Assembly (NCBI GenBank): GCA_964629805.1
Contig: CAZVTW010000002.1
Coordinates: forward strand, 1-45,373
Source: an uncultured Bacteroidales bacterium
Lineage (GTDB): Bacteria > Bacteroidota > Bacteroidia > Bacteroidales > CAZVTW01
DNA: 45,373 nt
Reading direction: 5' to 3'
The notes beneath the pieces were generated by a model, which saw only the letters and a program-made list of their open reading frames with translations, was not told the origin of the DNA and made no database searches. Below are positions 11,000-27,967 of the stretch, one piece after another. How positions within the stretch are numbered: position 1 is the first letter of the stretch; every line of letters starts with the position of its first letter. The translations under genes were made by a program, and so were the position numbers.

Positions 11000-12187
11000 T
11001 TATTCTCCATTTTTAATACATCTGACGCTTAGTCCGTAAGCTTTTGGAACATGACCACCATTCATAAATGGTGTATCTTCGGTCAGGTATTTAAAATAGG
11101 CTCTGGCAGATTTATCAGGATGTGCGTTTGAAGTCCAGAATGATGCCTGTCCTGCATTTTCATATACGGTATATCCCCAGTTGCCGGTTAATAATGCATT
11201 AAAACCTGAGCTACTGTTTGTTCCTTTTAATTTTTGACCGGAAAAAAAACCTTCGCCGTAATTTCCTGCTATATTAAGTATGCTGTCCAGTTCCTCCCAT
11301 TCACCTAATGTCGGTATATGCCATCCCTCCGGGCAAATACCCTGGATTTCAGCTTCATCACTTTCTGCACCCTCCGATCCATTTAAAGCGCTCTCCCAGC
11401 TGTAATGTGCTCCTTCTTTATTCAGGCAATATAATTCGCGGCAGTATTTTCCTGTTATTTCTGCATTATAATTATCCGGACGATGGGTTGTTTTAAGATT
11501 TTGAGAGATCCAGCATTGATCCTCAATTTGTACTGTCGGATATTTATTATTGTCAACATCCCTGATACTGTCAGAACCACAGGAGAATTCAGGCTGGTCA
11601 ACTGTAACAATGACACTGTCTCTTACCGGATTGTAAGGATTAGAGTCCCAGACTAACAGTTTATATTCACCGGCATATAGTCCGGAAATATTTTTCGTTT
11701 TTATCGAATCATCAGGATTCCAGTACTGATGTTGCCAGAGAAAAGAATAGGGTGGTATTCCTCCTTCAATGGTTGTCACTTTTATCGAACCGTTTTTTCC
11801 CTCATACCATTGAGCATCTGTTACTTCGTATTGAATATCAAGATCGTATGGCCCGGGCTCTGTTACTGTAAAAGTTTTGGTACTCACGGCTGATTCTCCA
11901 TAAGAGATACTCACTGTATAATCACCAGCGCTGAGACTGTCAATATGGGTTGTGGTTTCTCCGTTTCCCCATAAAACAAAGAAGGGTTCCTGTCCGCCTT
12001 TCAGCGTAATCTTAATCTCACCGTCATTTCCACCGTATGTACTAACATGTACAACAGAATCTTCAATAATGACTGCCGGAACAGGATCATTCAGGTCATT
12101 TTCCTCTTGGTCACAGGCCTGGAATACAATTAATAACATCATTGCAAAAAAAGAAATACCAGCAATGGATTTTATCATCATTTTCAT
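11000..12187 (-). CDS. Lipoprotein with two SprB-type repeats and a C-terminal FISUMP (Fibrobacter succinogenes major paralogous) domain
   Basis: Start chosen at MKMMIKSIAGISFFAMMLLIVFQAC (lipobox); the track N-terminal extension to 12298 has no signal. SprB-like repeats: YGGNDGEIKITLKGGQEPFFVLW and GKNGSIKVTTIEGGIPPYSFLW. FISUMP: DVDNNKYPTVQIEDQCWISQNL ... GICPEGWHIPTLGEWEEL ... FWTS ... GLSVRCIKN. Confidence 0.8.
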   Translation of the reverse strand: MKMMIKSIAGISFFAMMLLIVFQACDQEENDLNDPVPAVIIEDSVVHVSTYGGNDGEIKITLKGGQEPFFVLWGNGETTTHIDSLSAGDYTVSISYGESAVSTKTFTVTEPGPYDLDIQYEVTDAQWYEGKNGSIKVTTIEGGIPPYSFLWQHQYWNPDDSIKTKNISGLYAGEYKLLVWDSNPYNPVRDSVIVTVDQPEFSCGSDSIRDVDNNKYPTVQIEDQCWISQNLKTTHRPDNYNAEITGKYCRELYCLNKEGAHYSWESALNGSEGAESDEAEIQGICPEGWHIPTLGEWEELDSILNIAGNYGEGFFSGQKLKGTNSSSGFNALLTGNWGYTVYENAGQASFWTSNAHPDKSARAYFKYLTEDTPFMNGGHVPKAYGLSVRCIKNGE

Positions 12188-12375
12188 AAACAAATATTTA
12201 GTTTTAAAATCTGAAAATATATCTGAAGCATAAAAGTAAAACGAAATCAATAATCTGTAATGGAAATCTGTTTCTTTCACCTGATAAAATTGTCCCAAAA
12301 CCTGAATGTATTCACTTTTAATCTGTTATTGCCGTCATTATTCTTCTGTTTTTTTTTATCACAAACCAGGAGTTA

Positions 12376-12383
12376 TAATTTTG
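12376..12383 (+). promoter_or_regulatory. Candidate -7 box (TAatTTTG) upstream of the susC-like gene
   Basis: Exact TAnnTTTG match about 200 nt upstream of ATG 12588. Motif match only. Confidence 0.25.
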
Positions 12384-12587
12384 TACAATACACCTTATCT
12401 TTATTACATGAATTTAAGAATATGTTATCTGGGAAAATTGTCAATGATGAATGGGAGATTATTCCATGAGAAATACAAGTTAAATGTTTATTATTGCAAA
12501 TTACGAATCATACAGTTTCAAATTATTTTTATAATTTTATTATTCTGGCGTCATACAAATTTGCTCACAATGTTTAAACTCAAAACT

Positions 12588-15500
12588 ATGAAAAAGATAT
12601 TATTGTTATCTGCTTTTTTCTTTATACTCATCTTCTTTTCAAAAGCGCAGCAAAAAACCGTTGAAGGCACGGTCGTTCAAAAAGAAAATGGTTTTCCGAT
12701 TCCCGGTGTTACAGTTGTTGAACAAGGTACGACCAATGGTACGATTACTGATCTTGACGGACAATACAACATTGAGGTACCTCCTGAGGCGATACTTGTT
12801 TTTTCAAGTGTAGGTATGCAAAAACAGGAAATAAAGGTAGGTGATAAAACCACCATCAATGTCACACTTGAAAAGGAAGAAGTTCAGATCGATGAAATCG
12901 TTGTTGTTGGATACGGGACTAAAAGAAAACGGGATGTTATTGGTTCGGTTGCCAAAGTACAAAGTGCGGAGATGGAAGAAGGAACTGAACTCTCAATAGA
13001 TAACGCACTCCAGGGACGTGCTGCCGGGGTCCAGGTAACATCTTCAAGCGGTGTTCCCGGGGCGCCGGTAGAAGTAAAAGTACGGGGAATCAACTCTATT
13101 TCAATAGATACAGATCCTCTATGGGTCATTGACGGCATGCCTATTTATTCAGGAAAGGGATTTGAGTTTTCGCAGGGAACAACAGGGCAAAATCCTTTGT
13201 CTATGATTAATTCAAAAGACATTGAAACCATCGAAGTACTTAAAGGGGCTGCTGCAACTGCGATTTACGGTTCGCGTGGCGCAAATGGCGTTATTTTGGT
13301 GACAACCAAGGCAGGCAGAGGAGAGGCCGGCAAACTATCGGTTGATTATTCCACCGGTTTGAGTGAATTAACCAAGACGCTCGAAGATATGGGATACACA
13401 AATACACCGGAATATTTTCAACTGGCCGACATTGCTATCCAAAATGCCACAGGAAATCCGGCGGACTTTTTTACACCCGGTAAAGTTTTAAATACCAGAC
13501 CAACATTTTCATCAATGTCACGTGAACAGGCTTTACGAATACAAACCGACTGGATGGATGAGGTGATACGAACAGGTCAGTATCATGACCTGAACGTTTC
13601 AAATACGGCAAGTTACGATAAAGGTTCTGCCTTTATTTCTTTTGGCTACAGACATGATAAAAGCGTCAATGTTAATAATGACCTGCAAAGGTTTACCGGG
13701 CGAATCAATGCAGATATTGAACCTGTTAAAAATTTCACCACAGGTGTAAAAATTAGTTTTTCATATAGTGATAATGACAGGGTAAAATCAGAACAAGCAG
13801 GGGCAATTGGCACAGGAGGCGGCAAAAAAGGCGGATTTTCAACTGCCACCCGCGGCGCTTTGCCCTGGTTTCCGATATATGATGCAAGTGATCAGACCGG
13901 ATATTGGAGTCCGGCCTCTGGTGTAAATCTGACAGCCGGATTGGACAGGAAAAATATTCTTGATAAAGTCAAACAATACCGTAGTATCGGGGGTATTTTT
14001 GCTGATTTTAAGTTGCCTGTGGAAGGATGGTCAGTCAGGGGTGAGGTATCATATGATTATATACAAAACAACAGCGAATTGTGGGTTGCTGCTGCCCTGC
14101 GGGAAGAAGAAAACACCTTTGCTCATGACCGGGCGACCACTTACCAGGGAATTAATTATAATGTATATACCAGTTTTGACAGAACCATTGGAAATCATTA
14201 TTTCAACGCCGTGGTAGGTACTGAATCTCATCTCAAAAGCAGGCATGAAAGAAATATGGAAGGAATGGATTTAATCGGCCAGTACCAGGAACTGGGTAAT
14301 CCGCAAACCCGGCTTGAAATGACTTCAAATTTTAAAGACGAACGCTATCTCAGGGCATATTTTTCTCGTGCAACATACAAATTTAAGGACAGGTACCTGA
14401 TTGGTTTCAGTTTTCGTTCTGACGGCTCTTCCAAATTTGATGAAGATTACAGATGGGCTAACTTTCCCGCTGTAAAGGCTGGCTGGATTATATCAGACGA
14501 ACCTTTTCTTTCTTCGGTAAAAGCCTTCAACATACTGAAAATAAGAGGTTCATACGGCGTAACAGGAAATCAGTCAATACCGGATTCCCGTTTTTATACC
14601 ATTATGAAAAATGATGCAGATAACCGATATTCCTATCAAAATCTCAGCGGAGCGGGAACAAAAATCACAAATATTGGTAATCCTTTCCTGACCTGGGAAA
14701 CAACCCGGGAATTCGAAGCGGGTCTTGACTATGGATTATTAAATAACCGGATAAACGGTTCTATGGCTTATTATTATCAATCAGTATTTGATTTATTGTT
14801 GCAATCGGAAATTCCTCCCTCAACAGGTTTGGAAGGGAGTAATAAATTCTGGGAAAATATTGGTGATATGCACAACTACGGCTTCGAATTTGATATTTCC
14901 AGTGTCAACATCCATAAAAAATCAATTGATTTTCGATGGTCAACATCTTTTAACTTCACCTGGAACGATAATATGGTTGACAACCTCACACCAAGCATTG
15001 ACCGTTCAGGAAAAGGTATGACAAACGGAGACAGGCTCATCAGATCAGGAAACCAGCTAAACACTTGGTATCTGGCTGAATTTGCAGGTATTGATCCGGA
15101 AAAAGGCGTGGAAATGATTTATGAAATAGATTATGACCATTACCTGGAAACAGGTGAAACAGTTAAAACCGGCAGGAAAATTCCTGCAACCCTCTCCAAT
15201 GTAAGTAAACACAAGGTCATCCTTGAAGGAAAAACTGATATTCCGAAATACTATGGCGGATTAACCAACACATTCAGTTATAAAGGATTTGATTTGAGCT
15301 TTCAGATAAACTACAGCGGCGGTAATTATGTTTATGATTATAATTTGCAGCGTACTTCATTTGTGCATAATGGTCAAAACCTGATAAAAAATGAATTACT
15401 TACAGAAGCCTGGTCTGAGGATAACAGAGAAAGTGCCAAATACCCGAGGATTGTGTGGAACAGTTTCGATAATTATGGCTGGGACCCGGATGCCAACGAC

Positions 15501-15806
15501 GGAGAAGGAGCCTGGACTGAAGGACCCGGCGCAGGGAACTATACACCGGAACAACGTAAATATTCTAAATTTCTGTTCAAAGCTGATTATGTTCGCTTAA
15601 AAAATTTACGTCTGGGATACACTGTTCCGCAAAAATATTCACAGAGAATCAAAGTAAAAAAATTCAGAGTCTATGTTTCGGCAACCAACTTGCTCACATT
15701 GACCGATTACCCGGGATATGATCCTGAAACCAGTAACCACGAAATTGTCTCTGTTCCTCTACCACACTTAAAAATATATTCTCTCGGGATCAGGTTGATA
15801 TTATAA
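12588..15806 (+). CDS. SusC/RagA-family TonB-dependent outer-membrane glycan transporter
   Basis: MKKILLLSAFFFILIFFSKAQQ signal, carboxypeptidase-regulatory-like domain (TVEGTVVQKENGFPIPGVTVVEQGTTNGTITDLDGQYNIEV), TonB box DEIVVVGYG, plug (IEVLKGAAATAIYGSRGANGVILVTTK), long beta-barrel. Immediately followed by susD. ATG 12570 is an alternative start; the track start at 12306 is rejected. Confidence 0.95.
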   Translation: MKKILLLSAFFFILIFFSKAQQKTVEGTVVQKENGFPIPGVTVVEQGTTNGTITDLDGQYNIEVPPEAILVFSSVGMQKQEIKVGDKTTINVTLEKEEVQIDEIVVVGYGTKRKRDVIGSVAKVQSAEMEEGTELSIDNALQGRAAGVQVTSSSGVPGAPVEVKVRGINSISIDTDPLWVIDGMPIYSGKGFEFSQGTTGQNPLSMINSKDIETIEVLKGAAATAIYGSRGANGVILVTTKAGRGEAGKLSVDYSTGLSELTKTLEDMGYTNTPEYFQLADIAIQNATGNPADFFTPGKVLNTRPTFSSMSREQALRIQTDWMDEVIRTGQYHDLNVSNTASYDKGSAFISFGYRHDKSVNVNNDLQRFTGRINADIEPVKNFTTGVKISFSYSDNDRVKSEQAGAIGTGGGKKGGFSTATRGALPWFPIYDASDQTGYWSPASGVNLTAGLDRKNILDKVKQYRSIGGIFADFKLPVEGWSVRGEVSYDYIQNNSELWVAAALREEENTFAHDRATTYQGINYNVYTSFDRTIGNHYFNAVVGTESHLKSRHERNMEGMDLIGQYQELGNPQTRLEMTSNFKDERYLRAYFSRATYKFKDRYLIGFSFRSDGSSKFDEDYRWANFPAVKAGWIISDEPFLSSVKAFNILKIRGSYGVTGNQSIPDSRFYTIMKNDADNRYSYQNLSGAGTKITNIGNPFLTWETTREFEAGLDYGLLNNRINGSMAYYYQSVFDLLLQSEIPPSTGLEGSNKFWENIGDMHNYGFEFDISSVNIHKKSIDFRWSTSFNFTWNDNMVDNLTPSIDRSGKGMTNGDRLIRSGNQLNTWYLAEFAGIDPEKGVEMIYEIDYDHYLETGETVKTGRKIPATLSNVSKHKVILEGKTDIPKYYGGLTNTFSYKGFDLSFQINYSGGNYVYDYNLQRTSFVHNGQNLIKNELLTEAWSEDNRESAKYPRIVWNSFDNYGWDPDANDGEGAWTEGPGAGNYTPEQRKYSKFLFKADYVRLKNLRLGYTVPQKYSQRIKVKKFRVYVSATNLLTLTDYPGYDPETSNHEIVSVPLPHLKIYSLGIRLIL

Positions 15807-15843: not shown

Positions 15844-17499
15844 ATGATAAAGCACATAAATACAATAATTACAATAATCCTGTTTTTCCTGGCGCTTTCA
15901 GGTTGTGAAAACGAGGAGTTTTTCGAATTAAAACGGCCACCACAAAATCCATGGCCAACTGTTGAAGAATATGAACTGGCAGCACAGGGCGCATACTACC
16001 GGGCTTTTATTTATAGTTCATGGGAAAGCTATTACATCAGTGACAGGGTGTTGAATTTTGTTCAGTCCGACCTGGTTCACTGGATGGGTAACCAGGAAGG
16101 ATACCCGATGGAAGAAATGCTGAATCGTTCCGTTACTGATTACGTTGGACAACAAACTAAGGCCTTTACAGAGACCTATAAGCTGATTGGCTCATGCAAT
16201 GCCGGACTGGACTATTATTATGACAATGGTGAAGATCCTTTCCCGAATGCATCAGAAATTGACAAAAAAGATAATGTTCAGCGTATTGTTGGTGAATTGC
16301 ATTTATTAAGGGCACTTGGTTATTTCCAGAATGTGCGGCGACATTGTCCGCCATATAATCCCAACGGCGCCAATGATGATAAAATATTGCCTTATCGTGT
16401 GACCTTTCCCACATCTCTTAAAGATGCTTCAGAACCGGAATATGCTACGACTGAAAAAATATATCGTCTTATTATTGAAGATTTACATATTGCCAAATCA
16501 TTTTTGCCTACGGCATATAAGGGCAGTATGCATCCATCATATCAATACGGGCGGGCTGACTGGTATGCAGCCTGTACGTTACTGGGAAATGTGTATTTTC
16601 AGATGAGCAAACATGACAGCGCTCTTGTTGAGTATAACAGGGTTATAAATAGCGGTAAATATTCCCTGGCAGAAGAACCTCTCGATAATTTCAACAAGAT
16701 GGAAATAGGAGATGACAGTCCTGAAGTTATCTGGTATATGCTTTGGAGTGATCCGGCCAGAGGAGATGGTTATGGTCCTAAAAAGTTGACTTTATTTACC
16801 AAAAATCACTACCCGGCAACAGGTGGAGGTCACGGAGAAAACTGGAGTCTTTGCCCCTGGAACCAGTTCACATTGTCAAAATCAGCAATAGACAAAACAG
16901 GATGGATGGCAGACCCGCTCAATGGCGACTACACGGAAACTGATGCCGCAAGATTCGATAAAAGATACAAGCAGGTCTTTTACAGGATGGAAGGCACCAG
17001 CAGCGATCCCAAAGCTGACAAAACCGTGTTTATTACAAGTGAGCATAACCCGGTGACTAATGTAGACAGACCGATTATTTTCTGCGATAAATATTATCGA
17101 AGTGAAATTGGGATGCATCAGCATGTCCCAATCATGAGGCTGGCTGACCTGTACCTTAAAAGGGCCGTCATCCGTTTCAGAAGTGGAGACAAACAAGGGG
17201 CAGCAGATGATTTGAACAAAATAAGGGAACGAGCTTGGGATGAAAACACTGCAGGAACTCCTTATACACCACTTACCGTTGATCAGATAACTGAAGAAAT
17301 TATTGATGGTGAATGGATAAAAGAAATGGCCTGCGAAGGCAACAGGTTGTACTACATGATGGCGCTTCAAAATCCGATAGGGCCCGGTGACAGGCGTGAA
17401 GACCGCCCAAATCAAATCCTCGAACCTCCTTATGTCAATTATTACTGGAAAATCCCACGTACTGAGGAAATATACAGGGAAACAGCCTTGGAAGACTAA
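15844..17499 (+). CDS. SusD/RagB-family outer-membrane glycan-binding lipoprotein
   Basis: Lipobox (FLALSGCENEE), about 550 aa, helical TPR-like composition, position 37 nt after susC, and SusD-like segment ADLYLKRAVIRFRSGDKQGAADDLNKIRERA. Confidence 0.9.
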   Translation: MIKHINTIITIILFFLALSGCENEEFFELKRPPQNPWPTVEEYELAAQGAYYRAFIYSSWESYYISDRVLNFVQSDLVHWMGNQEGYPMEEMLNRSVTDYVGQQTKAFTETYKLIGSCNAGLDYYYDNGEDPFPNASEIDKKDNVQRIVGELHLLRALGYFQNVRRHCPPYNPNGANDDKILPYRVTFPTSLKDASEPEYATTEKIYRLIIEDLHIAKSFLPTAYKGSMHPSYQYGRADWYAACTLLGNVYFQMSKHDSALVEYNRVINSGKYSLAEEPLDNFNKMEIGDDSPEVIWYMLWSDPARGDGYGPKKLTLFTKNHYPATGGGHGENWSLCPWNQFTLSKSAIDKTGWMADPLNGDYTETDAARFDKRYKQVFYRMEGTSSDPKADKTVFITSEHNPVTNVDRPIIFCDKYYRSEIGMHQHVPIMRLADLYLKRAVIRFRSGDKQGAADDLNKIRERAWDENTAGTPYTPLTVDQITEEIIDGEWIKEMACEGNRLYYMMALQNPIGPGDRREDRPNQILEPPYVNYYWKIPRTEEIYRETALED

Positions 17500-17517: not shown

Positions 17518-19713
17518 ATGAACCATATAATCAATCATGTAAAAATAATCCGCCTCATAAAAAAAATCTCATTGCCACTCATCGGTTTAATATCATTACT
17601 CTGGTTTCTTATCAGGGTTATTCCAAAACCATCAAGGGCAAACTACCCCTGCCAGCGTGCAGCCTTCCCGTTTGCAACATCATTCATCATCTGGCTGACC
17701 AGCATGGCAGCCTCTGTCACACTTTTTAAAAAAGTAAGGTATCATCTTGGCAATAAAAAAATCCTGCGGTCTGTTTTTCTTATTTTTCCTGCTATCCTGC
17801 TTTTTTTTATGGCCCAGTATTTTCAACCCGTTTCATTCTCTTTTGCCGGTATCAATGAGCAAAAAGACAGGTTTGTACCAACAGAAGAACCAAACAGCCC
17901 GGCGGGAGAAGCAAAAGGCATCTATCCCGGGCGTGTGGTCTGGGCTTATAATACTGATGCCACAAGCTGGAACGGGACAAACGGATATTGGTGGGAGGAC
18001 AACAACACAAACCAACTTGTTGTGGATTCAATGCTCTCAGATGCTCTCAGGACTATATCAGGAGCTGATGAAGATACCCGGGCCTGGGCGAAAATATTCA
18101 CACATTTCAACAAAAAACATGACAAAGGAGAAACTGGCTACAGTCCGGGAGAAAAAATAGCTGTTAAACTCAACATGAACACCTGCAATTCAAATGACGG
18201 ATATCAGAATAATTCTGTCAACTCATCTCCACATGTTGTTTTTGCCCTGGTCAGCCAGCTTATTGAATATGCAGGTGTAGCTGCTGAGGATATTATCCTG
18301 TATGACAACAGCCGCTTTCTGCCTAAAACCATCTATAACAAAATAGAACCGGTATATCCCGGCATCACTTATATTGATAAAAATGCCAGGGCAGACTGGA
18401 TTACGTCATTCACACAGGATGAAAACTGCAAACTTGCCTGGTCTCAGAAGCTGACCCTGGAAAACGGTGGCGGACACCCGACATATCTTCCCGGTTTTAT
18501 CAGCAATGCATCGTATATTATCAACCTGGGGAACCTCAAAGGACATGATCTGGCCGGTGTTACCATGTGTGCAAAAAATCATGCAGGAACCATTCTGGCA
18601 ACCAACCCGGACAAACCAAACCTGAGTCCGCCCAGGGCTGCCGGTTTTCATCCGTATGCCACAGTACATGATTTTGACTACTGGAAACTGCCCGAAAGAC
18701 CAATGGGAACATATAATACACTGGTTGACCTGATGGGACATAAAGACTTAGGCGGGAAAACGCTTTTGTTCATTGTCGACGCTTTATATGCATCAGTTAA
18801 CCAGCACGCACAGATAGATAAAAACAGCAAATGGCAAATGTCGCCGTTCAACGGAGACTGGCCTTCCAGTATTTTTGTTTCGCAGGATGGTGTGGCTATC
18901 GAATCAGTAGGTCTGGACTTTTTGCGTTCAGAACCAACACAGGTTGAAGTCTACGGAAGTGTGGACAATTACCTGCATGAAGCTTCGCAGGCCGGAGCAC
19001 CGCCATCAGGTACTTTTTATGATCCTGAAGGTGACGGAACAGCAATCCAAAGCCTGGGGGTACATGAACACTGGAATAATGAACAGGATAAACAATACAG
19101 CCGTAATCTCGGCTCAGGTGAGGGCATTGAACTCATCCTGGCCACGAAAAAGGACAACAACCAGGGGCAACAACCAATGGAAATTGATTCGCCTGATAAT
19201 TTGTCGGTAAATTTAGTACAGGAAAACATCAAGCTATTTTGGATTGACAATGCAGACAATGAAGATGCTTTTATTATTGAATATGCTGTTGGAAATGAAG
19301 ATGACTTTACAACACTTGATACGGTGTCACTTAATACAACTCAGTATCTTTTCCCGGCATATGAAGAAGGACAAATATATTTTTTCAAAGTCAGGGCTAT
19401 AGCTCAAGGTTACGCTTCGGATTATTCCAATACAGCGACCATACACATTGAAGAACAAACAGGGATTTCAAAACGTGAGGGGCAGATAAAGATTGATTTA
19501 CATCCTGCCGGAAATTTCATATCGGTCAGATCGACAGGCAGACAACTTCATTCTGTGTCCCTGTATTCCTTAAACGGTACATGTCTGTACAAAGATTCAC
19601 GGGTTTCAAAAACGGTTTATATTTGCACACAGCAGTTGTCCGCAGGCATGTATTTGGTTCAGGTTATAAGCCGTGACAGCAAGGTTTACCGGCAAAAAGT
19701 TATGAAGAAATAG
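17518..19713 (+). CDS. DUF362-family domain protein fused to an Fn3 domain and a T9SS C-terminal sorting domain. The N-terminus has three hydrophobic segments.
   Basis: DUF362-like blocks: GEKIAVKLNMN, SSPHVVFALVSQLIEYAGVAAEDIILYDNS, IINLGNLKGHDLAGVTMCAKNHAG, LLFIVDALYA, IFVSQDGVAIESVGLDFL. Fn3: NLSVNLVQENIKLFWIDNADNEDAFIIEY...YFFKVRA. CTD: IDLHPAGNFISV...VSLYSLNGTCLY...LSAGMYLVQVIS...VYRQKVMKK. Confidence 0.75.
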   Translation: MNHIINHVKIIRLIKKISLPLIGLISLLWFLIRVIPKPSRANYPCQRAAFPFATSFIIWLTSMAASVTLFKKVRYHLGNKKILRSVFLIFPAILLFFMAQYFQPVSFSFAGINEQKDRFVPTEEPNSPAGEAKGIYPGRVVWAYNTDATSWNGTNGYWWEDNNTNQLVVDSMLSDALRTISGADEDTRAWAKIFTHFNKKHDKGETGYSPGEKIAVKLNMNTCNSNDGYQNNSVNSSPHVVFALVSQLIEYAGVAAEDIILYDNSRFLPKTIYNKIEPVYPGITYIDKNARADWITSFTQDENCKLAWSQKLTLENGGGHPTYLPGFISNASYIINLGNLKGHDLAGVTMCAKNHAGTILATNPDKPNLSPPRAAGFHPYATVHDFDYWKLPERPMGTYNTLVDLMGHKDLGGKTLLFIVDALYASVNQHAQIDKNSKWQMSPFNGDWPSSIFVSQDGVAIESVGLDFLRSEPTQVEVYGSVDNYLHEASQAGAPPSGTFYDPEGDGTAIQSLGVHEHWNNEQDKQYSRNLGSGEGIELILATKKDNNQGQQPMEIDSPDNLSVNLVQENIKLFWIDNADNEDAFIIEYAVGNEDDFTTLDTVSLNTTQYLFPAYEEGQIYFFKVRAIAQGYASDYSNTATIHIEEQTGISKREGQIKIDLHPAGNFISVRSTGRQLHSVSLYSLNGTCLYKDSRVSKTVYICTQQLSAGMYLVQVISRDSKVYRQKVMKK

Positions 19714-19987: not shown

Positions 19988-21874
19988 TTATTCTTCAACT
20001 ATCTGACGTGGGTCAAGCTTCATCTTTGTCTTTTTATAGGATTTTAACGGCCCGGTTTCATCCGGGAGAGACAATTTTTCTGATATGCTGATTGTAAGTT
20101 TGTCAGTATTAAAATGCACAGGCAATATCTCAACGTATTGTCCGTGTTTTTCCCATCCGAATATATTTTGCCATGCCTGTAAATCCAAAAGCAAGGCTGG
20201 CTCCGGGTGTGACATTTTCATATAACCGGGTTTCATCCCTGCAAATACATTATAATCTGTCATACTGCCTTTATTGGGCAATTCAATGGCATGCTTATCA
20301 CACCTGACAAAAATATTCCGGGTAATTTCATGGTCTCTTTCAGTACCGCCACGCATACCAACTATTCTGTCGGCATTGGCGTAACACCCAAAACCGGCAT
20401 TTTCTATGTCCAGCGCCAGGTTATGATCAAAAATAATACTATCTGAGCCATCAGTATACAATGCACAACCACCTGCTCCGTAGGCGCCGCTAATCCAGTA
20501 CTGACTGTGCAGATCATAAAAAACATTGTGGTCTATCCTGCAAAGGTGACGACTTACTTCCACATACACAGCGCCACGTGCTGTCGTAATTGAAGCAAAT
20601 ACGTTTTTCGTTATCCTGCAATTTTTATTAGACTTGTAATCGAGCCAGATTCCTGGTGCATGAACGATATTTCTGAATATATTTCTCCTGATGAGTGTAC
20701 CTTCCGACTTGTGTAATTTGATGGCTCCTGCCTCCCATCCATGTTCAGCATCGTGCCATCCGATTTTTTCAAACAGGTTATCTTCAATCAGCATATGTTT
20801 TCCCCACATGGCCTCTAAACCGGCCAGTCCGCAATTGCGGATTATATTCCCCCGGAAAATATGATACCCGATAACAGGTTGCCTGACAGTGTGCCACATT
20901 TCATTACCCATGTCAACTCCCAGGGCATTGGCCCATTCCAGCATACAGTCTTCAATAATCCAGTGATGTCCGCGTGAGGTAGATACCATGCCTCTTTGTG
21001 GCACAGGAAATCCGTTACCGGCATGGATAAAATGAATGCCTTTAATTTTGATATAACCTGTTCCGTAGCTTTTTGGTGCAACCAGGCGTTCTTTTACTGT
21101 AGCTTCTATGGTAAAATCAGAAGGTTTTGTATCAAAAGGAAATTTAACATGGATAGTGAGTCCGTGGTGTTCCACCCAAAAAGCGCCACTGTCAGCTTTT
21201 GATAGTTCAATAGGCTTCATGACCTGATGTAGGGGATGTCCATCCAGAAAAATCATCCCGCGACGTTTGAAATGGGCATCCATCTTAATGTTTTTGTAAT
21301 CTACCCAGGACCTGTCATGAGCCAGGTTAAGCATAGCAAACGGGTTGTATCCGTTAAACACTTCTCCCTGAAAATTATATTCATAGACATTTGCATCCTG
21401 TCCATCCGTATCATCGGAATAATACCCCTTGCCTCCCAGTTGCCATCCTTCAGAGTGACTGAATGATTCAGGAGCCAGGATAACAGATCCTTTTACAAAC
21501 ACATCTTCACCGGGCGCTGATTCATAACAAATCATCTTTTTAGGGCTGGATCCTCCGTTCACCGGGTGAATGCTTTCGCGATAAATACCGGCTTTTATAA
21601 CAACTCTTTCTCCCGGTTGCAGTACTTGTGCAGCCTTGTTGATTGTCCTGAAAGGTTGTTCCGGACTTCCGGGATTATTGTCACCGGCTCCAGGATGCTT
21701 CTGATCTACATAATACGTTTTGCTGTATTTTTGACTTTTCTCCCATGACTTAAAATCATTACCGTAAGGAAGTTTATCCTCGTTTGTTTTTTTGAATATA
21801 TCTTCCTGAGAAAAGACATATTTTCCTGCTATAATAAAACAAAAGAGAATAAGCAGTTTTGTTCTTTTTATCAT
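19988..21874 (-). CDS. Secreted right-handed parallel beta-helix protein (pectate-lyase fold); candidate glycanase or lyase of unknown family
   Basis: Signal peptide. N-terminal cap HPGAGDNNPGSPEQPFRTINKAAQVLQPGERVVIKAGIYRE. PbH1-like coils: FRGNIIRNCGLAGLE, IEDNLFEKIGW, IRRNIFRNIVHAPGIW, ITKNVFASI, IDHNVFYDL, FDHNLALDIENAGF, ITRNIFVRCDKHAIE. Confidence 0.7.
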   Translation of the reverse strand: MIKRTKLLILFCFIIAGKYVFSQEDIFKKTNEDKLPYGNDFKSWEKSQKYSKTYYVDQKHPGAGDNNPGSPEQPFRTINKAAQVLQPGERVVIKAGIYRESIHPVNGGSSPKKMICYESAPGEDVFVKGSVILAPESFSHSEGWQLGGKGYYSDDTDGQDANVYEYNFQGEVFNGYNPFAMLNLAHDRSWVDYKNIKMDAHFKRRGMIFLDGHPLHQVMKPIELSKADSGAFWVEHHGLTIHVKFPFDTKPSDFTIEATVKERLVAPKSYGTGYIKIKGIHFIHAGNGFPVPQRGMVSTSRGHHWIIEDCMLEWANALGVDMGNEMWHTVRQPVIGYHIFRGNIIRNCGLAGLEAMWGKHMLIEDNLFEKIGWHDAEHGWEAGAIKLHKSEGTLIRRNIFRNIVHAPGIWLDYKSNKNCRITKNVFASITTARGAVYVEVSRHLCRIDHNVFYDLHSQYWISGAYGAGGCALYTDGSDSIIFDHNLALDIENAGFGCYANADRIVGMRGGTERDHEITRNIFVRCDKHAIELPNKGSMTDYNVFAGMKPGYMKMSHPEPALLLDLQAWQNIFGWEKHGQYVEILPVHFNTDKLTISISEKLSLPDETGPLKSYKKTKMKLDPRQIVEE

Positions 21875-21945: not shown

Positions 21946-24243
21946 CTATTTAATACATCTTATCCACTTTGCATTCCCCGCCGGAACATTTACCCTAACA
22001 TTATTTCCTGTGTGTGTCAATTCATGTTTATCCAGGATATCTTCGGCTTTTTTATAAGTATATTGATTGCTTGTTATCCTAATTGTTTCTTCATTCCCTT
22101 CATTCAGTATAAAAAAGTGGTCTGCCAATGGCGCTGTACGTCTGAAAACGACAGACGTTTTTGCATTTTTGACGGAATATGGAGGTTCAATATTTCCAAC
22201 GGTATTAGCTGCAATAAACGTTTCAACCTTTTCTTTTCCCGGTTTGAACACCATTCTTCCTGCTTCAAAATTAAAAACCGTGCATGTTCCTTTGCCAAAA
22301 ACTGAGCTGATAACAGCCGGTTTTCCACTGTCGAAAGTTTGCAAAACTTCTGCATGTGTTATTTTTAAATCTCCGAAATATCCCTCAACAGAAAATTGCT
22401 CCAGTTCCTGCGGAACATTGAAAGTGTTAAAAAGATCCACAATTTGGAATCCAAATAATTGTTCAAACTTTGAATTTTTCTTTTGCTTGTTCAACCGTCC
22501 GTAATTATCCATAATAAACAAAGGCATATCTGCAACAATCCTGCCGCCATTTTTAACATAATAGAACAGAATATCAAAATCTTGTTCATCCAGCGCCATA
22601 ACACACGGCAGAAAAATAACCGGATACCTGTGGACAAGGCCGGCACGCAAATCCCGTTCTGTCAAATATTCAATCGGAATGTGATTGTTCATGAGGGCCC
22701 TGGAGACGCCAATTTTCGCCTGTGAATGGTATTGTCTGAATTGCTTGTCCCAGTCTGTTTTATATACTTGTGTGTTCAACGGATAAGCGCCAAGAGATAA
22801 TCTTCCGAGTATTGCTTCGTTTTCCCAGGAATACAGAATACCAACCAGAGGTTCATCCATGGCCTCCCAGAGTTCAAACCGCTGTTCCTGGAGAATACGG
22901 CTTATTTTACCAGCTTCTGTTGCTCTTTCTGATGGTTTTCCCTGAATATCACACAAGGCATATTCGCCTGTTTCCCATCCTTCGCCACGGGAGTTCCACA
23001 TCCAAAAGCCAATACCTTTGAGTCCGGCGGCAATATATGAAACCATGAGCTGCCTGATTTTATTCCGGTCAACAGTCGTCGGGAAATACCCACTGTGAAA
23101 GGTTGGCCCGCCTGTTGATTCCCAGGTTGCGGCCCAACCGCCTTTGAACATATCGGCAACTATTCTGGCCTGTATATATACAGGTTTGGTGATTTCCCCG
23201 TCAACCAGGAAAAAATGATGGCAAAGATGAATAGAGGAATAGAAAGAGCCCCCGATTGATGCTGTTTTTGCCTGACCTTCCAAATCCCAGGTGTTGATAG
23301 CCTGATTTTCAAATATCTGATGTCCCCCGGTACGCTCAGGTTCCAACGGGTCCCATTCGGTATAGAGTTCCATTGTCTTGCGGTAATTTTCTATGATTAA
23401 TTCGGATTGAAACTTCATGGCGTCCCTGAATCTCCTGAAATCTTTACTCATTTTACCAACGCCATTCCCAAACTGGTCAAAACCGGAGCCCTGTAGAAGC
23501 TTTGCTGCTTCCTGAAATGTACTGAATGTACACTGACTGATAAAACCGCAGTTCCAGGCTTTCTTCAGGTTTTCAATAGTTTCATATTCTTCCCGGAGCC
23601 AAAGAGCAAAAGAAGGTATCAGCCTTTCAGGCATCCAGGGATTATTTCTGCCGGGTTCACCCATTCCTTTTGGCTTGGGCGGTTTTTCCTTCATCCGCGC
23701 GATTCTTTTTCGCATAAGTTGAGTTTGCCAGGCCATCATTTTAGGGTGATCTTCAATGAGTGATAAATTTTCATCTGTAAGGGGTATTTCAATACCCAGT
23801 CTATCAAGAAGCTCTTGATCAATAGCCTGCCAACCACCCCTGCCGTAATACCAGGGCGCTATACCGACATCCAAAGCAGCATGAAAAACAGAATCACGAA
23901 ACCATTCAGGATTATCAGGTGATTTAAGCTGGACTTGTTTCAGAGCAGTAAAGCCCAAATCTTTAATAATCCTGAATTCCTTTTTTGCTGAATCAAGATT
24001 ATCGCCACGTTGCTGGTAATAGACAACACCAACAGGAAAAGGCTTTATGTTTCGCAATTTCTCCTGCATGGGACTGTTGTTAAGTCCAAGGTATTTTTTT
24101 GTAAGAAACGGGTCGTCACCATTCCTTGACTGTGCTTCCATGACCGGAATTTTTTTATTGACTTTCTCCGGAGACTTCTTATTATTGCATGAAAACAACA
24201 ATATAGTAATGCTAATAAGATAAAAAAAAGTGTTTGTGTTCAT
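21946..24243 (-). CDS. Divergent GH42-like (clan GH-A, three-domain) lipoprotein
   Basis: Start chosen at MNTNTFFYLISITILLFSC (lipobox, no overlap with the upstream gene). GH42-like blocks: FALWLREEYETIENLKKAWN, AATWESTGGPTFHSG (compare LMESTPS), and trimerisation-like VGILYSWENEA...YPVIFLPCVMALDEQDFDILFYYVKNGGRIVADMP. No W-x-x-D-N-E acid/base block seen. Confidence 0.55.
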   Translation of the reverse strand: MNTNTFFYLISITILLFSCNNKKSPEKVNKKIPVMEAQSRNGDDPFLTKKYLGLNNSPMQEKLRNIKPFPVGVVYYQQRGDNLDSAKKEFRIIKDLGFTALKQVQLKSPDNPEWFRDSVFHAALDVGIAPWYYGRGGWQAIDQELLDRLGIEIPLTDENLSLIEDHPKMMAWQTQLMRKRIARMKEKPPKPKGMGEPGRNNPWMPERLIPSFALWLREEYETIENLKKAWNCGFISQCTFSTFQEAAKLLQGSGFDQFGNGVGKMSKDFRRFRDAMKFQSELIIENYRKTMELYTEWDPLEPERTGGHQIFENQAINTWDLEGQAKTASIGGSFYSSIHLCHHFFLVDGEITKPVYIQARIVADMFKGGWAATWESTGGPTFHSGYFPTTVDRNKIRQLMVSYIAAGLKGIGFWMWNSRGEGWETGEYALCDIQGKPSERATEAGKISRILQEQRFELWEAMDEPLVGILYSWENEAILGRLSLGAYPLNTQVYKTDWDKQFRQYHSQAKIGVSRALMNNHIPIEYLTERDLRAGLVHRYPVIFLPCVMALDEQDFDILFYYVKNGGRIVADMPLFIMDNYGRLNKQKKNSKFEQLFGFQIVDLFNTFNVPQELEQFSVEGYFGDLKITHAEVLQTFDSGKPAVISSVFGKGTCTVFNFEAGRMVFKPGKEKVETFIAANTVGNIEPPYSVKNAKTSVVFRRTAPLADHFFILNEGNEETIRITSNQYTYKKAEDILDKHELTHTGNNVRVNVPAGNAKWIRCIK

Positions 24244-24256
24244 ATGGGTATAAGTT

Positions 24257-25864
24257 TTATTCATTTTTATGATTTTTCTGAAACACATACAATGAAGCCG
24301 GCTTCACACCACGATTAAAAAATTCAATATGGGCATGTGATGTTTTCAGGTCAGATGTATGAACAGTTCCTGAGAGATCAGTATATCCGATTTCCTGTCC
24401 ATACAGGCCTTGGACGCCAACTGCAATAATTCCGGGAACTTCTGTCATATTCCACAATATATTTTTCACTTTTCCTTTGTAGGGTTCACTGTAGCCGGCT
24501 TTCCAGTTCCACAGAACAAGTCCCTGTGCATGCGCAGGAGGTAAATATTTTTTATTTCCGCCATGTTTCCAGGTAGCACAATAAATATTATCAAACAGGT
24601 TGTTAACACTCACACTGGCATGGCAATCTATTGCAGAAGGTTCTTCTGACCAGCAATTATGAAAAACATTTCCGGTGCATTGCCCGGTTATTGTGTATGT
24701 ATGCATTTGCTGCCCGCCTTTGAGATTAAACAGGAGATTAGCAGTTGATGCTCCGCCCAGTACAAATCCATTGTGCCCGGGATTTCCGCGAATCTGGCAA
24801 TCATACACCGAGCAATTTTTACTGTGCGACAGGCCTATAGCTGTTGAGGTGTTGGAATGAATAATTGAAAAAACACACGTGTTAACTGCATAACGAACTT
24901 TGATATGATCCCATCCGTTATCATGTATTGAGTTTTTATGATGATAAAAAGTCTCATGCCAGTCGGAGAGGAGGTGAAATCCGGCTACAACAACATTCCC
25001 GACCAGGTAGTCTGCCTCCCATAGTTCAGGGTGAAATTCGGGCCTCATGTCCCTGAATAATGGAATATCAGTCTTAATTTCATTTCCGTTGATTGCTGTA
25101 ACTTTAATATATTGCCTGTACCTGTGTTTTTCAAATCCATCCGGATTTAACCGTGCTTTTCCCCATCTTTTCAGCGGAAATGTCAGGTCTTTCAACAGGT
25201 TATTAGCAGAGTCTTCTTTCATTGTGAGTAAATACGTTTTCCCTGCTTCCAGATTATGTCCCGGATTGACAATCAGGCTGCGGCTGTTTTTGTGCCCTTT
25301 TGTTATATGCGCCATGGCATTAGCAGATTCTGCCGGATACCAGGTCGAATCTGAAGGGAGTTTACTAATCAGAAAAAAGCCGGGATATCGTCCTGCAAGC
25401 CATTTTTTTGTCTCGTCGTGATACCAGCTCGGAGCATGATCATGCAATGTGGTTCCGTCAGGACCTTCACCGGCTCCGAGAATAACAATATTGGATGAAG
25501 AAACAGTTACAAAACGTTTTTCAGTTGTGACATCAAAATCATAAACTCCCGCGGAGAATTTAACAACTCCCCTGCCTTCTTTTTCAACTGCATTGACAGT
25601 TGCCTGTATGGCATCAATATCATCCTTTCCATCATCCGGCAATGCTCCAAAACTATCAACATGAAATATTTTATATCCATCAGGAAATATCTGCGGCTGT
25701 TTCACTCCGTATTCATAACCGGCAAAAGAAAAATCCGCAAGCCGGGCCGAATAGGGATCATCAAGGTATTCTGACAGTATCTCCGGGTATTCATCGCAAT
25801 CAGAACTACAAGAAACGAGATAAATAAGGAGCAGACAATATAAAATCAAATTTCGCATAAACAT
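24257..25864 (-). CDS. Beta-helix lipoprotein of the pectate-lyase-3 / GH28-related superfamily; family unassigned
   Basis: Lipobox LIYLVSCSSD. N-terminal cap FHVDSFGALPDDGKDDIDAIQATVNAVEKEGRGVVKFSAGVYDF, then NIVILGAGEG, CSVYDCQIRGNPGHNGFVLGG, NVFHNCWSEEPSAIDCHAS, NNLFDNIY. Confidence 0.65.
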   Translation of the reverse strand: MFMRNLILYCLLLIYLVSCSSDCDEYPEILSEYLDDPYSARLADFSFAGYEYGVKQPQIFPDGYKIFHVDSFGALPDDGKDDIDAIQATVNAVEKEGRGVVKFSAGVYDFDVTTEKRFVTVSSSNIVILGAGEGPDGTTLHDHAPSWYHDETKKWLAGRYPGFFLISKLPSDSTWYPAESANAMAHITKGHKNSRSLIVNPGHNLEAGKTYLLTMKEDSANNLLKDLTFPLKRWGKARLNPDGFEKHRYRQYIKVTAINGNEIKTDIPLFRDMRPEFHPELWEADYLVGNVVVAGFHLLSDWHETFYHHKNSIHDNGWDHIKVRYAVNTCVFSIIHSNTSTAIGLSHSKNCSVYDCQIRGNPGHNGFVLGGASTANLLFNLKGGQQMHTYTITGQCTGNVFHNCWSEEPSAIDCHASVSVNNLFDNIYCATWKHGGNKKYLPPAHAQGLVLWNWKAGYSEPYKGKVKNILWNMTEVPGIIAVGVQGLYGQEIGYTDLSGTVHTSDLKTSHAHIEFFNRGVKPASLYVFQKNHKNE

Positions 25865-27967
25865 CTATTTTTTCCAGATACAAACTCCTGCCGGTTCCAG
25901 CTTTTTTTTACCAATAACAATTTTTGCTCCTTTATGAACCGGGGCTTCAACTGTATTGGAAGTATAGTTAACAGTTAACCAGCATCCATCGCGATATTCG
26001 GTGAAGACATAAGAAGGCAAATCCAGTATTTCAGCGCCTGCTGATAGGTATACCTGTTTTAATATTTCATACTCAAGTAATCCTTTCCCGGTCCAGACTC
26101 CAATGTAAGTAACACTCCCTTTTCCTGCCTTTCGTGAAACAACTACCGGCGAACCTGAATAAAACTGGTCTGTATGCTTTGCCAGGACTTCAGTTTTCTT
26201 GTCAGGAATCAGAATATCAGCCCAGACATTCCAGCGATATTCCTTTCCGTCCATAATGATTTCACCATATTTGCCAGGTGGCAGGTGGTCATAAAAATCC
26301 ACTTTAGCGCCTGTTAATTCCCAAACCGGTTCCTGTAACATCGCTTCATGAAGATGACCGTTGTTATCCTTCATTCCTGTTCTGCAGGAAAGTACCAGGT
26401 GACCGCCGTTTTCAACATATTCAGACCATTTTTTAATCAACGCTTTATTAACCAATGAGTATGCCGGGGCTATCATAAAAGGATAATTGTCCGGATCAAA
26501 TCGATCCTGTTCCCGGATCATGGAGACCTGACACCCCATTCTTTTTAAAGCATCATAGTATGTATAGTAATGCTGCCAGGTATCCCAGTTATTGGTATGC
26601 GGAAGATTTTCCATATCAAAAATATTTGATTGTTTCCAAAGAAAAGCCGTTTTCCTTGAAGTCCATTCTAATGGTTCCTGCTTTGGAATGTTATGGTTGA
26701 CAGAAATATTTTGAATTTCCCTGATTGTACTGATATATTCCTTCCCGCCATGAGAAAGTGTAAGCCCATCGGTTTCGAGGATTCCTTCATGAAATTGTTC
26801 ACTTCCGTAAAGTGGTTGCCTGAATCGATACGTACATACGAATTCATCTCCCAGTCCGAAACTATGCCAAAGCCACATCCTGACCGCACCCGGTAAAGGC
26901 CTGCTGTTCCATTTGCCCCAGTTAATCTGGCCTGGCTGAAGTTCCATAATCCCGGTCTTCCCTTCCACTGACCGGGCCAGCTCATTCGAAAAAGACAGCT
27001 CAAGCCCGCTGCCAAGGCGATGAGCCAAATCTCCATCAGGGTAGTTTAAAAATGTACTGAGCAGATACATGGTATGGGATGCGAAATCAAGATCGCCACG
27101 GTTACGAAACAGGTCAACAGAAGGCAAAAATTTGTAATATGCATAATTTGTTGTTATCCATTGATTATCAATCACAGAAGAATGAAGTATTTCAGCCTGG
27201 TATCTGATGTATGAAGCAAGTTCATCTGCTGTGAACCTTTTGAAATCCAGGAATGCTGTTGGATTTCCCCCGGCATTTTCAAGCTTGTTCGGTATTCTTA
27301 TTTGCTCAAAATTATTGTACAACTGACTCCAGAAAGCAGTTCCCCAGCTTTCGTTTAAATTTTCAACCGTTGTATACTTGTTTTTCAGCCATTTCCTGAA
27401 ATGCTTTTGTGCTGTTTCAGAATAATCATACAAATTTTTAAAATGTGGCTCATTATCTATCTGCCAACCACATACAATGGAATTTTGTCCATACCGTGCT
27501 GCTAATTTTCTGACAATTCTTTTGGCAAAAAACTGATATTTTTCGTTCATCCCATTAACATGCAGACGACCACCATGCCTCATTTTTGTTCCATGTTCAT
27601 CAACAGCAAGCACTTCCGGGTAATTCACTGTTAACCAAGCAGGCGGAGTGGGTGTTGGCGTACACATTATGACTTTAAGTCCATGTTTCCCGGCCAGTTG
27701 AACACATGTATCGAGCCAGCCGAATGTGAATTTACCTTCTTCAGGTTCCATCTTTGCCCAGGCAAATTCCCCAAAATGAGTGAATTCAAATCCCTCATCT
27801 GCTATTCTTTTAATATCCATTTCCCATTGGTTTTTATCCCAATGCTCAGGATAATAATAAACGCCAACAGGCATAAGTGATTTTGATGGTATAATATTAT
27901 CCTGTGATTTGAGTGGGATGCCAACCAATAGAAAAAGAGAGATAATAATATATTTAATCATGTTCAT
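25865..27967 (-). CDS. GH42 family beta-galactosidase, secreted (second canonical copy)
   Basis: YYYPEHWDKNQWEMDIKRIADEGFEFTHFGEFAWAKMEPEEGKFTFGWLD, CTPTPTPPAWL, WQIDNEPHF, IMELQPGQINWG, YPFMIAPAYSLVNKALIKKWSEYVENGGHLVLSCRTG. Signal peptide present. Confidence 0.9.
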   Translation of the reverse strand: MNMIKYIIISLFLLVGIPLKSQDNIIPSKSLMPVGVYYYPEHWDKNQWEMDIKRIADEGFEFTHFGEFAWAKMEPEEGKFTFGWLDTCVQLAGKHGLKVIMCTPTPTPPAWLTVNYPEVLAVDEHGTKMRHGGRLHVNGMNEKYQFFAKRIVRKLAARYGQNSIVCGWQIDNEPHFKNLYDYSETAQKHFRKWLKNKYTTVENLNESWGTAFWSQLYNNFEQIRIPNKLENAGGNPTAFLDFKRFTADELASYIRYQAEILHSSVIDNQWITTNYAYYKFLPSVDLFRNRGDLDFASHTMYLLSTFLNYPDGDLAHRLGSGLELSFSNELARSVEGKTGIMELQPGQINWGKWNSRPLPGAVRMWLWHSFGLGDEFVCTYRFRQPLYGSEQFHEGILETDGLTLSHGGKEYISTIREIQNISVNHNIPKQEPLEWTSRKTAFLWKQSNIFDMENLPHTNNWDTWQHYYTYYDALKRMGCQVSMIREQDRFDPDNYPFMIAPAYSLVNKALIKKWSEYVENGGHLVLSCRTGMKDNNGHLHEAMLQEPVWELTGAKVDFYDHLPPGKYGEIIMDGKEYRWNVWADILIPDKKTEVLAKHTDQFYSGSPVVVSRKAGKGSVTYIGVWTGKGLLEYEILKQVYLSAGAEILDLPSYVFTEYRDGCWLTVNYTSNTVEAPVHKGAKIVIGKKKLEPAGVCIWKK

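Follow-up and report, generated by a model that had tools for sequence, protein, structure and literature searches.

What does a DUF362 protein do directly after susD in a polysaccharide utilization locus (PUL), and on which side of the membranes does it belong? The question is raised by a stretch of 45,373 nucleotides from an uncultured Bacteroidales bacterium (GenBank assembly GCA_964629805.1, contig CAZVTW010000002.1), the whole of which is called the window here. In the window, one gene encodes a DUF362 core that lies between an N-terminus with three hydrophobic stretches and a C-terminal sorting domain (CTD) of the type IX secretion system (T9SS). We propose that its product is a T9SS-exported cell-surface protein, probably an enzyme with a LarA-fold core, which would act together with partner proteins on an acidic glycan; as a whole, this reading has in our judgement about an even chance of being right. 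A first-pass annotation had seen in the gene an extracellular DUF362 protein in the position of a surface glycan-binding protein (SGBP), and our analysis confirms its observation and supports its interpretation in part. The gene is laid out as follows, with structures taken from AlphaFold2 (AF2) models and local confidence given as the predicted local distance difference test (pLDDT):

17518..19713, + strand: DUF362 gene, a complete open reading frame (ORF) of 731 residues, with an N-terminal membrane module, a linker, a LarA-fold/DUF362 core, an Fn3 domain and a T9SS CTD.
17566..17613, + strand: hydrophobic helix 1 (residues 17-32), preceded by a Lys/Arg-rich tail.
17614..17667, + strand: loop 1 (residues 33-50), RVIPKPSRANYPCQRAAF, with the family-invariant R33, P38, R40, Y43, P44 and C45, and with no Pfam or NCBIfam match.
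17668..17724, + strand: helix 2 (residues 51-69).
17725..17769, + strand: loop 2 (residues 70-84), strongly basic (family mean charge +4.5), the putative cytoplasmic n-region of an internal signal.
17770..17817, + strand: helix 3 (residues 85-100), the putative h-region of a Sec signal.
17821..17862, + strand: disordered linker (residues 102-115, pLDDT below 50 in AF2) with SFSFA/G, the putative signal peptidase I c-region.
17863..19152, + strand: core (residues 116-545), a LarA-like two-domain alpha/beta fold by AF2 and Foldseek.
18157..18918, + strand: Pfam DUF362 match (residues 214-467).
18544..18576, + strand: motif GH343DLAGVTMCAK353, aligned with SH174FFAGFSGGRK184 of LarA (catalytic His and cofactor-tethering Lys).
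18667..18669, + strand: His384, aligned with the Ni ligand His200 of LarA in the extended alignment only.
19186..19440, + strand: Fn3 domain (residues 557-641).
19504..19710, + strand: T9SS type A CTD (residues 663-731).

The peptide motifs from which a DUF362 core had been recognized are all present in the ORF, and the call holds in a hidden Markov model (HMM) search: PF04015 scores 44.7 bits on the full protein and 46.5 bits on the core against a Pfam cut-off of 24 bits, covering model positions 1-200 of 200. The Fn3 domain and the type A CTD that had been placed behind the core were recovered as well. The T9SS model TIGR04183 recognizes residues 663-731 with 33.7 bits (cut-off 23). The Pfam models Por_Secre_tail (PF18962, 23.7 against a cut-off of 27) and fn3 (18.7 against 25) stay below threshold, but the two domains are confirmed independently of them, the Fn3 by the structure model and the CTD by the family profile. 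In the full-length AF2 model (mean pLDDT 89.2, predicted TM-score [pTM] 0.65), the Fn3 and CTD region gives tandem-Fn3 matches in Foldseek with E ~1e-10, and the family profile matches the solved T9SS CTDs 8glk_D (2.8e-5), 8glj_D and 5hfs_A.

The first question is what kind of fold the core has. The core (residues 116-545) was remodelled alone for Foldseek, the full-length model being swamped by tandem-Fn3 matches, and this model reached a pLDDT of 93.0 and a pTM of 0.94. Against the PDB, every one of the 18 matches below E 0.05 is to a LarA-family enzyme, and the alignments reach 390 columns. The best is the malate racemase 7s91 (Mar2, 1.9e-5), and the others include the LarA-like 9q3j and 9q3k, 9eia and LarA itself (5huq, 2.8e-3); the next match has E 0.067 and a probability of 0.12. 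The likeness is a distant one (identity 13-16%, TM-scores ~0.3), and LarA is out of reach of plain sequence search: the full protein matched PDB chains only in its Fn3 region, and the family profile matched only CTDs. A kinship of DUF362 with the N-terminal domain of LarA, stated in the first-pass annotation, is borne out by Pfam clan CL0471, which holds both DUF362 and Lar_N, and Foldseek and hhalign extend it to the whole LarA fold. Genuine lactate racemases (P0125-P0127, P0121) carry weak DUF362 matches, LarA of the L. plantarum type scoring 22.5 bits against the cut-off of 24, and we read these weak scores as direct sequence-level evidence of the clan relationship. In the opposite direction, the Lar_N (PF09861) and LarA_C (PF21113) HMMs give no match to the DUF362 protein even at E <=10; genuine LarA scores 252 and 238 bits with them. 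On its modelled structure, the core is a remote homolog of the LarA fold within DUF362.

In LarA, K184, R75 and H200 bind the nickel-pincer nucleotide (NPN), and H108 and H174 form the catalytic pair. The core was aligned by hhalign with a 106-sequence LarA profile built from representatives, L. plantarum LarA (100% identical to 5huq_A) serving as reference. The global mode gave a meaningless alignment, and the local modes were consistent but statistically weak. One local match (core 201-239 on LarA 147-185, E 0.019) sets GH343DLAGVTMCAK353 on SH174FFAGFSGGRK184; a second, collinear with it (core 130-176 on LarA 56-107, E 0.009), sets YD263-N-S-R266-F-L-P on SD72-H-T-R75-P-V-P. H343 falls on H174 and K353 on K184 in every run, a placement that the Pfam coordinates also give; the two residues are 10 apart, as in LarA, and a later His follows. 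H384 reaches H200 when the alignment is extended, and the substrate-binding Q295 and K298 of LarA are unmatched. Among 212 family members, H343 is conserved in 91%, K353 in 93%, H384 in 87%, D263 in 91% and R266 in 75%. A 50-sequence alignment adds the invariant D404, S455, D457, D467, E472, H487, E488, H516, E517 and W519, together with H408, D421 and H518, which are at least 90% conserved. This conservation pattern indicates a putative active site at the place of the LarA cofactor pocket.

These residues raise the reading that the protein is a true LarA-superfamily epimerase or oxidoreductase, carrying a nickel-pincer-type or otherwise covalently bound cofactor, which would work by hydride transfer outside the cytoplasm on the alpha-hydroxy-acid groups of uronate or aldonate sugars, its N-terminal module helping to load or export the cofactor. 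It draws on the LarA-like fold, on the His, Lys and His retained at the H174, K184 and H200 positions, on the D-x-S-R-x-x-P motif that lies on LarA D72-R75 in one register, and on the uronate context of the locus described below (KduI and CBM96). Furthermore, natural LarA homologs with a single catalytic His exist and are linked to carbohydrate metabolism, the H174 equivalent being the one that is lost. However, NPN is made in the cytoplasm by LarB, LarE and LarC, the export of the protein appears to be of the Sec type with no twin-arginine motif by helix 3, so that the membrane would be crossed unfolded, the Lar HMMs and the two substrate-binding residues fail to match, and HMM scans found no lar genes in the 45-kb window. 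We therefore hold this reading to be quite unlikely. A genuine nickel-pincer cofactor is itself improbable, because the protein is apparently exported unfolded via Sec while NPN is made in the cytoplasm. A bolder form would have an extracytoplasmic branch of the LarA superfamily still using the pocket for an organometallic or covalently tethered cofactor, with the three-helix module as a device that loads cofactor or metal at the periplasmic face before secretion; it is a long shot in our estimate. If it were true, the protein would be the first nickel-pincer-type (or new-cofactor) enzyme known to be secreted and to act on polysaccharides, and a new carbohydrate-active enzyme (CAZyme) class would extend across Bacteroidota, Planctomycetota, Acidobacteriota and other phyla.

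The second question is what the N-terminus is. The three hydrophobic stretches noted there earlier stand: they peak at residues ~17-33, 50-68 and 84-100, and AF2 builds helices at 2-34, 44-78 and 82-101. The region is present in 118 of the 120 top homologs, the exceptions being one truncated entry and one plain signal-like N-terminus, and the top homologs share the conserved motif WFLIRVIPKPSRAxYPCQRAAFP. W29, R33, P38, R40, Y43, P44 and C45 are invariant in the 50-sequence alignment, and each of the seven occurs in 188-193 of the 212 distinct members, the remainder being mostly alignment gaps. Within these members, the module and its invariant RxxPxPxRxxYPC loop are kept in Bacteroidota, Ignavibacteriota, KSB1, Fibrobacteria, Planctomycetota, Verrucomicrobiota, Acidobacteriota and others, at least eight phyla in all, and the module matches no Pfam or NCBIfam model. 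A database search with the N-terminal 105 residues alone yielded only 61 proteins, all of them short. Ten were inspected, of which nine are mere N-terminal pieces of family members and one (P0275) is an FtsX-like chimera, so that this search, of clearly limited sensitivity, gave no sign of the module on other passenger domains. Judged by its conservation, the three-helix N-terminus is a real, family-specific module and not a start-site artefact.

The artefact had been suggested in the first-pass annotation, which offered translation from ATG 17704, correctly given there and corresponding to Met63, with an ordinary long Sec signal. Met63 is indeed followed by a basic stretch and a hydrophobic helix, which resemble a signal peptide. 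This start would nevertheless remove residues 17-62 and with them the best-conserved motif of the whole N-terminal region, which at least 189 of the 212 members share across phyla; nearly all homologs are called with the region before Met63, and Met63 itself is not conserved. The start at 17704 was rejected on these grounds, and the probability that we leave to it is close to nil. Residues 17-62 should be translated because they are among the most conserved of the family, and the only in-frame ATG upstream of them is 17518. The latter is also the first possible ATG, because the susD stop lies 18 nt (six codons) before it in the same frame.

How, then, could a protein with such an N-terminus be carried outside the cell? 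Averaged over the family, the N-tail has a net charge of +3.5, loop 1 has +3.8 and loop 2 has +4.5; the segment that follows helix 3 is at -0.8. We infer an N-in, C-out topology, with the N-tail and loop 2 in the cytoplasm and loop 1 and the core in the periplasm, and this agrees with the exclusively extracytoplasmic modules that are fused to the core in the family (Fn3, CTD, beta-helix, Laminin_G_3 and dockerin-like). The linker reads SFSFA/G in the query and, for example, VPALA/QD, PARA/AD and ISFA/NS in homologs. A strict [AVST]-x-A motif not before Pro occurs in 78% of 150 distinct linkers and in 31% of length-matched control segments, and the linkers are enriched in Ala, Ser and Thr and depleted in Lys and Arg. 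Loop 2, helix 3 and the linker are probably the n-, h- and c-regions of a cleavable Sec signal. In some homologs, loop 2 contains Arg-Arg pairs; a Tat signal was rejected, since they stand ~12 residues before helix 3 in a context that is not Tat-like. The conflict between an inner-membrane anchor and T9SS export, to which the first-pass annotation had pointed, is real, but it is probably resolvable, as helix 3 and the A-x-A-type linker resemble a cleavable signal.

The module could also be a permanent anchor, and perhaps part of the functional unit, for instance if loop 1 offered its Cys and Arg to the active site, or else to a membrane-associated substrate. The protein would then be an inner-membrane-anchored periplasmic enzyme that processes imported oligosaccharides, and its CTD would be vestigial or serve regulated release. 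The extreme conservation of the module and its loop-1 motif across phyla speaks for this, as do its occurrence only with the LarA-fold core in the limited-sensitivity search, the CTD-less members of 549-560 residues in the family, and a helix 3 of 16-18 residues followed by a putative c-region that is long for a typical signal peptide. The window protein, however, has an intact CTD that scores above threshold. Of the 18 loci with CTD tails, 16 are titled as Bacteroidota-lineage, Ignavibacteriota or KSB1 (the FCB group), two have uninformative titles and none comes from a non-FCB phylum, a distribution that suggests selection for use. AF2 leaves the module undocked on the core, with the poorly predicted linker between them and the pTM falling from 0.94 for the core to 0.65 at full length; the dockerin-like, CBM and beta-helix tails of other members imply an extracellular destination, and the linkers are enriched in A-x-A sites. 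On balance, a permanent anchor seems rather unlikely to us. For T9SS machinery in the organism the evidence is indirect, namely a second CTD protein in the window (5381-10825) and several in the locus of a paralog (L087).

The third question is whether the place after susD has a meaning of its own. In the first-pass annotation, it was taken as the position normally held by an SGBP gene. Adjacency to SusC/SusD was found in only one of 80 loci from all phyla, and this one (L001) is the counterpart of the window itself, from its own organism. Synteny was compared with the closest orthologs, which share 43-52% identity and the same Fn3 and CTD layout. In seven of eight places, the ortholog gene directly follows, in the same orientation, a gene for a protein of 1,240-1,810 residues with CBM96 repeats and a T9SS CTD, and in six of those susC and susD are divergently transcribed upstream of the CBM96 gene. 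The common order is susD(-), susC(-), CBM96(+) (L082-L084, L086, L088, L089), and the order in the window is CBM96(-), FISUMP(-), susC(+), susD(+), DUF362(+). Because the window order is the inverse of the block order in the orthologs, the position after susD is, by gene order, a local rearrangement, explained by inversion of the [susD(-) susC(-) CBM96(+)] block, the extra FISUMP gene aside. Conserved synteny is limited to these closest orthologs, where the identity is 49-61% for the CBM96 giant protein, 56-61% for the beta-helix protein, 56-61% for the GH42M-like protein, 43-56% for the 678-residue protein and 45-48% for SusC. By this conservation, the CBM96 giant protein (5381-10825) is the real conserved partner of the DUF362 gene. 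A scan for sigma-70 promoters and terminators from susC to the end of the gene gave nothing interpretable; such a scan does not model Bacteroidota promoters.

These observations bear on the reading of the protein as a non-catalytic SGBP that replaces the SusE/F type downstream of susD. The gene does follow susD immediately, is probably co-transcribed with it, and encodes an Fn3 spacer with a surface-targeting CTD. The protein nevertheless has no lipobox: no signal-plus-lipobox arrangement can be read from the sequence, and C45, the one Cys of the N-terminus, belongs to the interhelical YPCQRAAF loop. Its core is not a beta-sandwich but an alpha/beta, LarA-like one, and it contains some 20 invariant residues (His, Asp, Glu, Lys and Ser) of the kind that active sites typically show. 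Furthermore, only in this genome does the gene follow susD, which the inversion explains, and in the orthologs the gene before it already encodes a protein with six CBM96 modules. The assignment to the SGBP slot is therefore not upheld, and a purely binding role is very unlikely.

The fourth question concerns the substrate. The window holds SusC, SusD, GH42 (two copies), GH29, GH3, a GH127-like protein, beta-helix proteins and a hybrid two-component system (HTCS), which together make it a PUL. The genes around the DUF362 gene are:

5381..10825, - strand: giant protein of 1,814 residues with six CBM96 (NCBIfam 'DNRLRE') repeats, three CHB_HEX_C_1/Fn3_assoc units and a T9SS CTD.
11000..12298, - strand: FISUMP (Fib_succ_major) protein with SprB repeats and Big_3, between the CBM96 gene and susC; absent there in ortholog loci.
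12306..15806, + strand: susC-like TonB-dependent transporter (TIGR04056, 753 bits), present upstream as previously described.
15844..17499, + strand: susD-like gene, likewise as described, its stop directly before the DUF362 gene.
19988..21874, - strand: right-handed beta-helix protein, a convergent neighbour kept in ortholog loci; in Planctomycetota, this fold also occurs as a fusion to the core.
21946..24288, - strand: GH42M-like protein of 780 residues with only weak GH42/GH42M matches, kept in this PUL type.
24257..25864: BT3328-family lyase-like beta-helix protein, its 3' end overlapped by 32 nt by the 5' end of the 780-residue GH42M-like gene.
27964..29088, - strand: protein of 374 residues with no Pfam or NCBIfam match, 38% identity in orthologous PULs.
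29091..31127, - strand: protein of 678 residues with no Pfam or NCBIfam match, conserved in orthologous PULs (43-56% identity).
31493..35653, - strand: HTCS regulator of the PUL.
40567..41400, + strand: KduI (5-dehydro-4-deoxy-D-glucuronate isomerase), 396 bits.
41420..42649, + strand: BglB-like protein.
42732..44924, + strand: sodium:solute symporter.

The susC ORF has 1,166 residues from its first ATG and 1,132 residues as called in L001, and the true start may lie 34 codons downstream. The 678- and 374-residue proteins are candidate uncharacterised CAZymes. The KduI, BglB-like and symporter genes would form a cytoplasmic uronate-catabolism module adjoining the PUL, consistent with an acidic glycan, and the founding CBM96 module is alginate-specific. 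The presence of CBM96, KduI, the BT3328-family lyase-like protein, beta-helix proteins, the sodium:solute symporter, sulfatases and fucosidases in the surroundings suggests that the substrate is an acidic, uronate-containing glycan that is processed partly by lyases. A carbohydrate-related extracytoplasmic role, as suggested in the first-pass annotation, fits the genomic context in many phyla.

Taken together, a three-step path may be proposed. The protein would first be inserted into the inner membrane by its family-specific three-helix module, in the orientation given above. Helix 3, with its basic n-region and the A-x-A-type linker, would then act as a Sec signal and be cut by signal peptidase I, and the T9SS would carry the released core-Fn3-CTD part across the outer membrane. 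At the surface, its partners would be the CBM96 giant protein, the beta-helix lyase-like enzyme, the GH42M-like protein and the two proteins of 374 and 678 residues; they may jointly act on the acidic uronate-containing glycan, fragments of which would enter through SusCD. The active site would lie where LarA holds its nickel-pincer cofactor, at the conserved His343, Lys353 and His384.

Several points weigh against this proposal. The statistics of the hhalign matches are weak (E 0.009-0.04, probability <5%), the register of D263/R266 on LarA D72/R75 conflicts with the Pfam coordinates and the order of secondary structures, and no conserved His was aligned with LarA H108 by hhalign, the register there being ambiguous. 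As NPN is made in the cytoplasm, the conserved Lys and His may have a different role in a protein that is exported. For the export path, the A-x-A enrichment of the linkers is only suggestive of cleavage, loop 1 is strongly basic (+3.8) though placed in the periplasm, and an invariant loop rich in Cys and Arg, retained across phyla, is not what one would expect of a leader that is simply cleaved. Family-wide, no operon partner is conserved, the commonest neighbour family being found in 10 of 79 loci from all phyla. Finally, literature searches for DUF362, PF04015 and COG2006 gave no functional study or biochemical data, in line with the earlier statement that the domain has no assigned function.

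The family itself is very large. At least 5,375 relatives are found in the database; all of the top 120 carry DUF362, and 95 of them have it together with a precomputed Por_Secre_tail match. A scan of one genome per species, which covered 185,579 species of bacteria and archaea, gave at least 590 matching loci, and these loci span Bacteroidota, Ignavibacteriota, KSB1, Fibrobacteria, Planctomycetota, Verrucomicrobiota, Acidobacteriota, Victivallales and others, the match normally beginning at query residue 9-23. The conserved part extends beyond the Pfam domain by ~95 residues before and ~80 after it (including HEHWNN and DNYLHEA). Many Planctomycetota members reach 800-1,400 residues and have C-terminal extensions of the beta-helix, Laminin_G_3, metallo-beta-lactamase-like and dockerin-like kinds. 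In 18 copies the core is fused to a beta-helix domain, and in eight loci such a domain is encoded by a separate neighbour, which gives 23 of 80 loci in total. Other recurrent neighbours family-wide are sulfatases, GH2, GH29, GH31, a GlcNAc 2-epimerase-like protein and sodium:solute symporters, beside the beta-helix proteins. Paralogs are often tandem or clustered, with 110 copies in 79 loci (e.g., L009, L026, L039, L042 and L046). One paralog of 731 residues and 44% identity (P0035, in L087, GCA_054921235.1, contig JBUDSK010000028.1, 8001-10196) comes from the same assembly as L001. It sits on another contig than L001, in a different CAZyme cluster with a CBM9/Big_2 CTD protein, GH94, GH3, a sulfatase and a GH30 CTD protein, and no CTD match is on record for it.

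Proteins that combine DUF362 with a T9SS CTD are already known as such, being abundant and so named in NCBI annotation. An undescribed carbohydrate-active or carbohydrate-binding role had been suggested for the family; the carbohydrate context holds, and DUF362-CBM9-dockerin fusions from beaver and moose gut metagenomes had already been reported in 2017 as extracellular and candidate carbohydrate-active proteins (PMC5742341). Apparent mentions of DUF362 in the TmAT paper were set aside, as they refer to DUF3623. In the searched literature, three features appear to be undescribed: the conserved three-helix leader with its invariant loop, the apparent retention of the LarA His/Lys/His constellation in an exported branch, and the conserved CBM96/beta-helix PUL partnership. 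The family is spread across the main glycan-degrading phyla and lies repeatedly in, or is fused to, polysaccharide-degrading machinery. If it is enzymatic, it would be a new class of secreted carbohydrate-active protein on a racemase/epimerase fold known so far only from cytoplasmic nickel-pincer enzymes. As for the conserved membrane leader, it would either represent an extended export signal of a new type, used by T9SS cargo and by other secreted proteins, or be a membrane domain with a function of its own.

Among known systems, the Pfam family DUF362 is matched over its full model, and NCBI names the relatives 'DUF362 domain-containing protein'; the Pfam domain, however, covers only residues 214-467, and the window family adds flanking conserved residues, the three-helix module and extracytoplasmic tails. 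DUF362 has been described in the literature as associated with iron-sulfur proteins. The window protein differs in having no Cys cluster in its core, and an iron-sulfur role was rejected for this reason. The DUF362-CBM9-dockerin proteins (PMC5742341), compared here by their description, resemble it as extracellular DUF362 proteins fused to carbohydrate-related modules, but carry CBM9 and a dockerin where the window protein carries Fn3 and a T9SS CTD, and that report does not describe an N-terminal module, LarA-type residues or synteny. The genes of SusE/SusF-type SGBPs likewise come right after susD and in its orientation; these SGBPs are lipoproteins with a tandem beta-sandwich body, whereas the window protein has neither that signal nor that body, has an enzyme-like core of 430 residues, and occupies a position that is not kept in its orthologs. 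The LarA enzymes (L. plantarum LarA, 5HUQ; Mar2, 7S91) are the only significant structural matches and share the aligned His, Lys and His. In contrast to the window protein, which appears to be exported and lacks a counterpart of His108, they are cytoplasmic and loaded with the cofactor made by LarB, LarE and LarC. Known T9SS cargo carries a plain cleavable Sec signal peptide. With the type A cargo of Bacteroidota, such as gingipains and secreted CAZymes (e.g., the GH167 enzyme 9WHD), the window protein shares the C-terminal beta-sandwich sorting domain, but here a conserved two-helix hairpin, with an invariant motif in its loop, stands before the signal-like helix.

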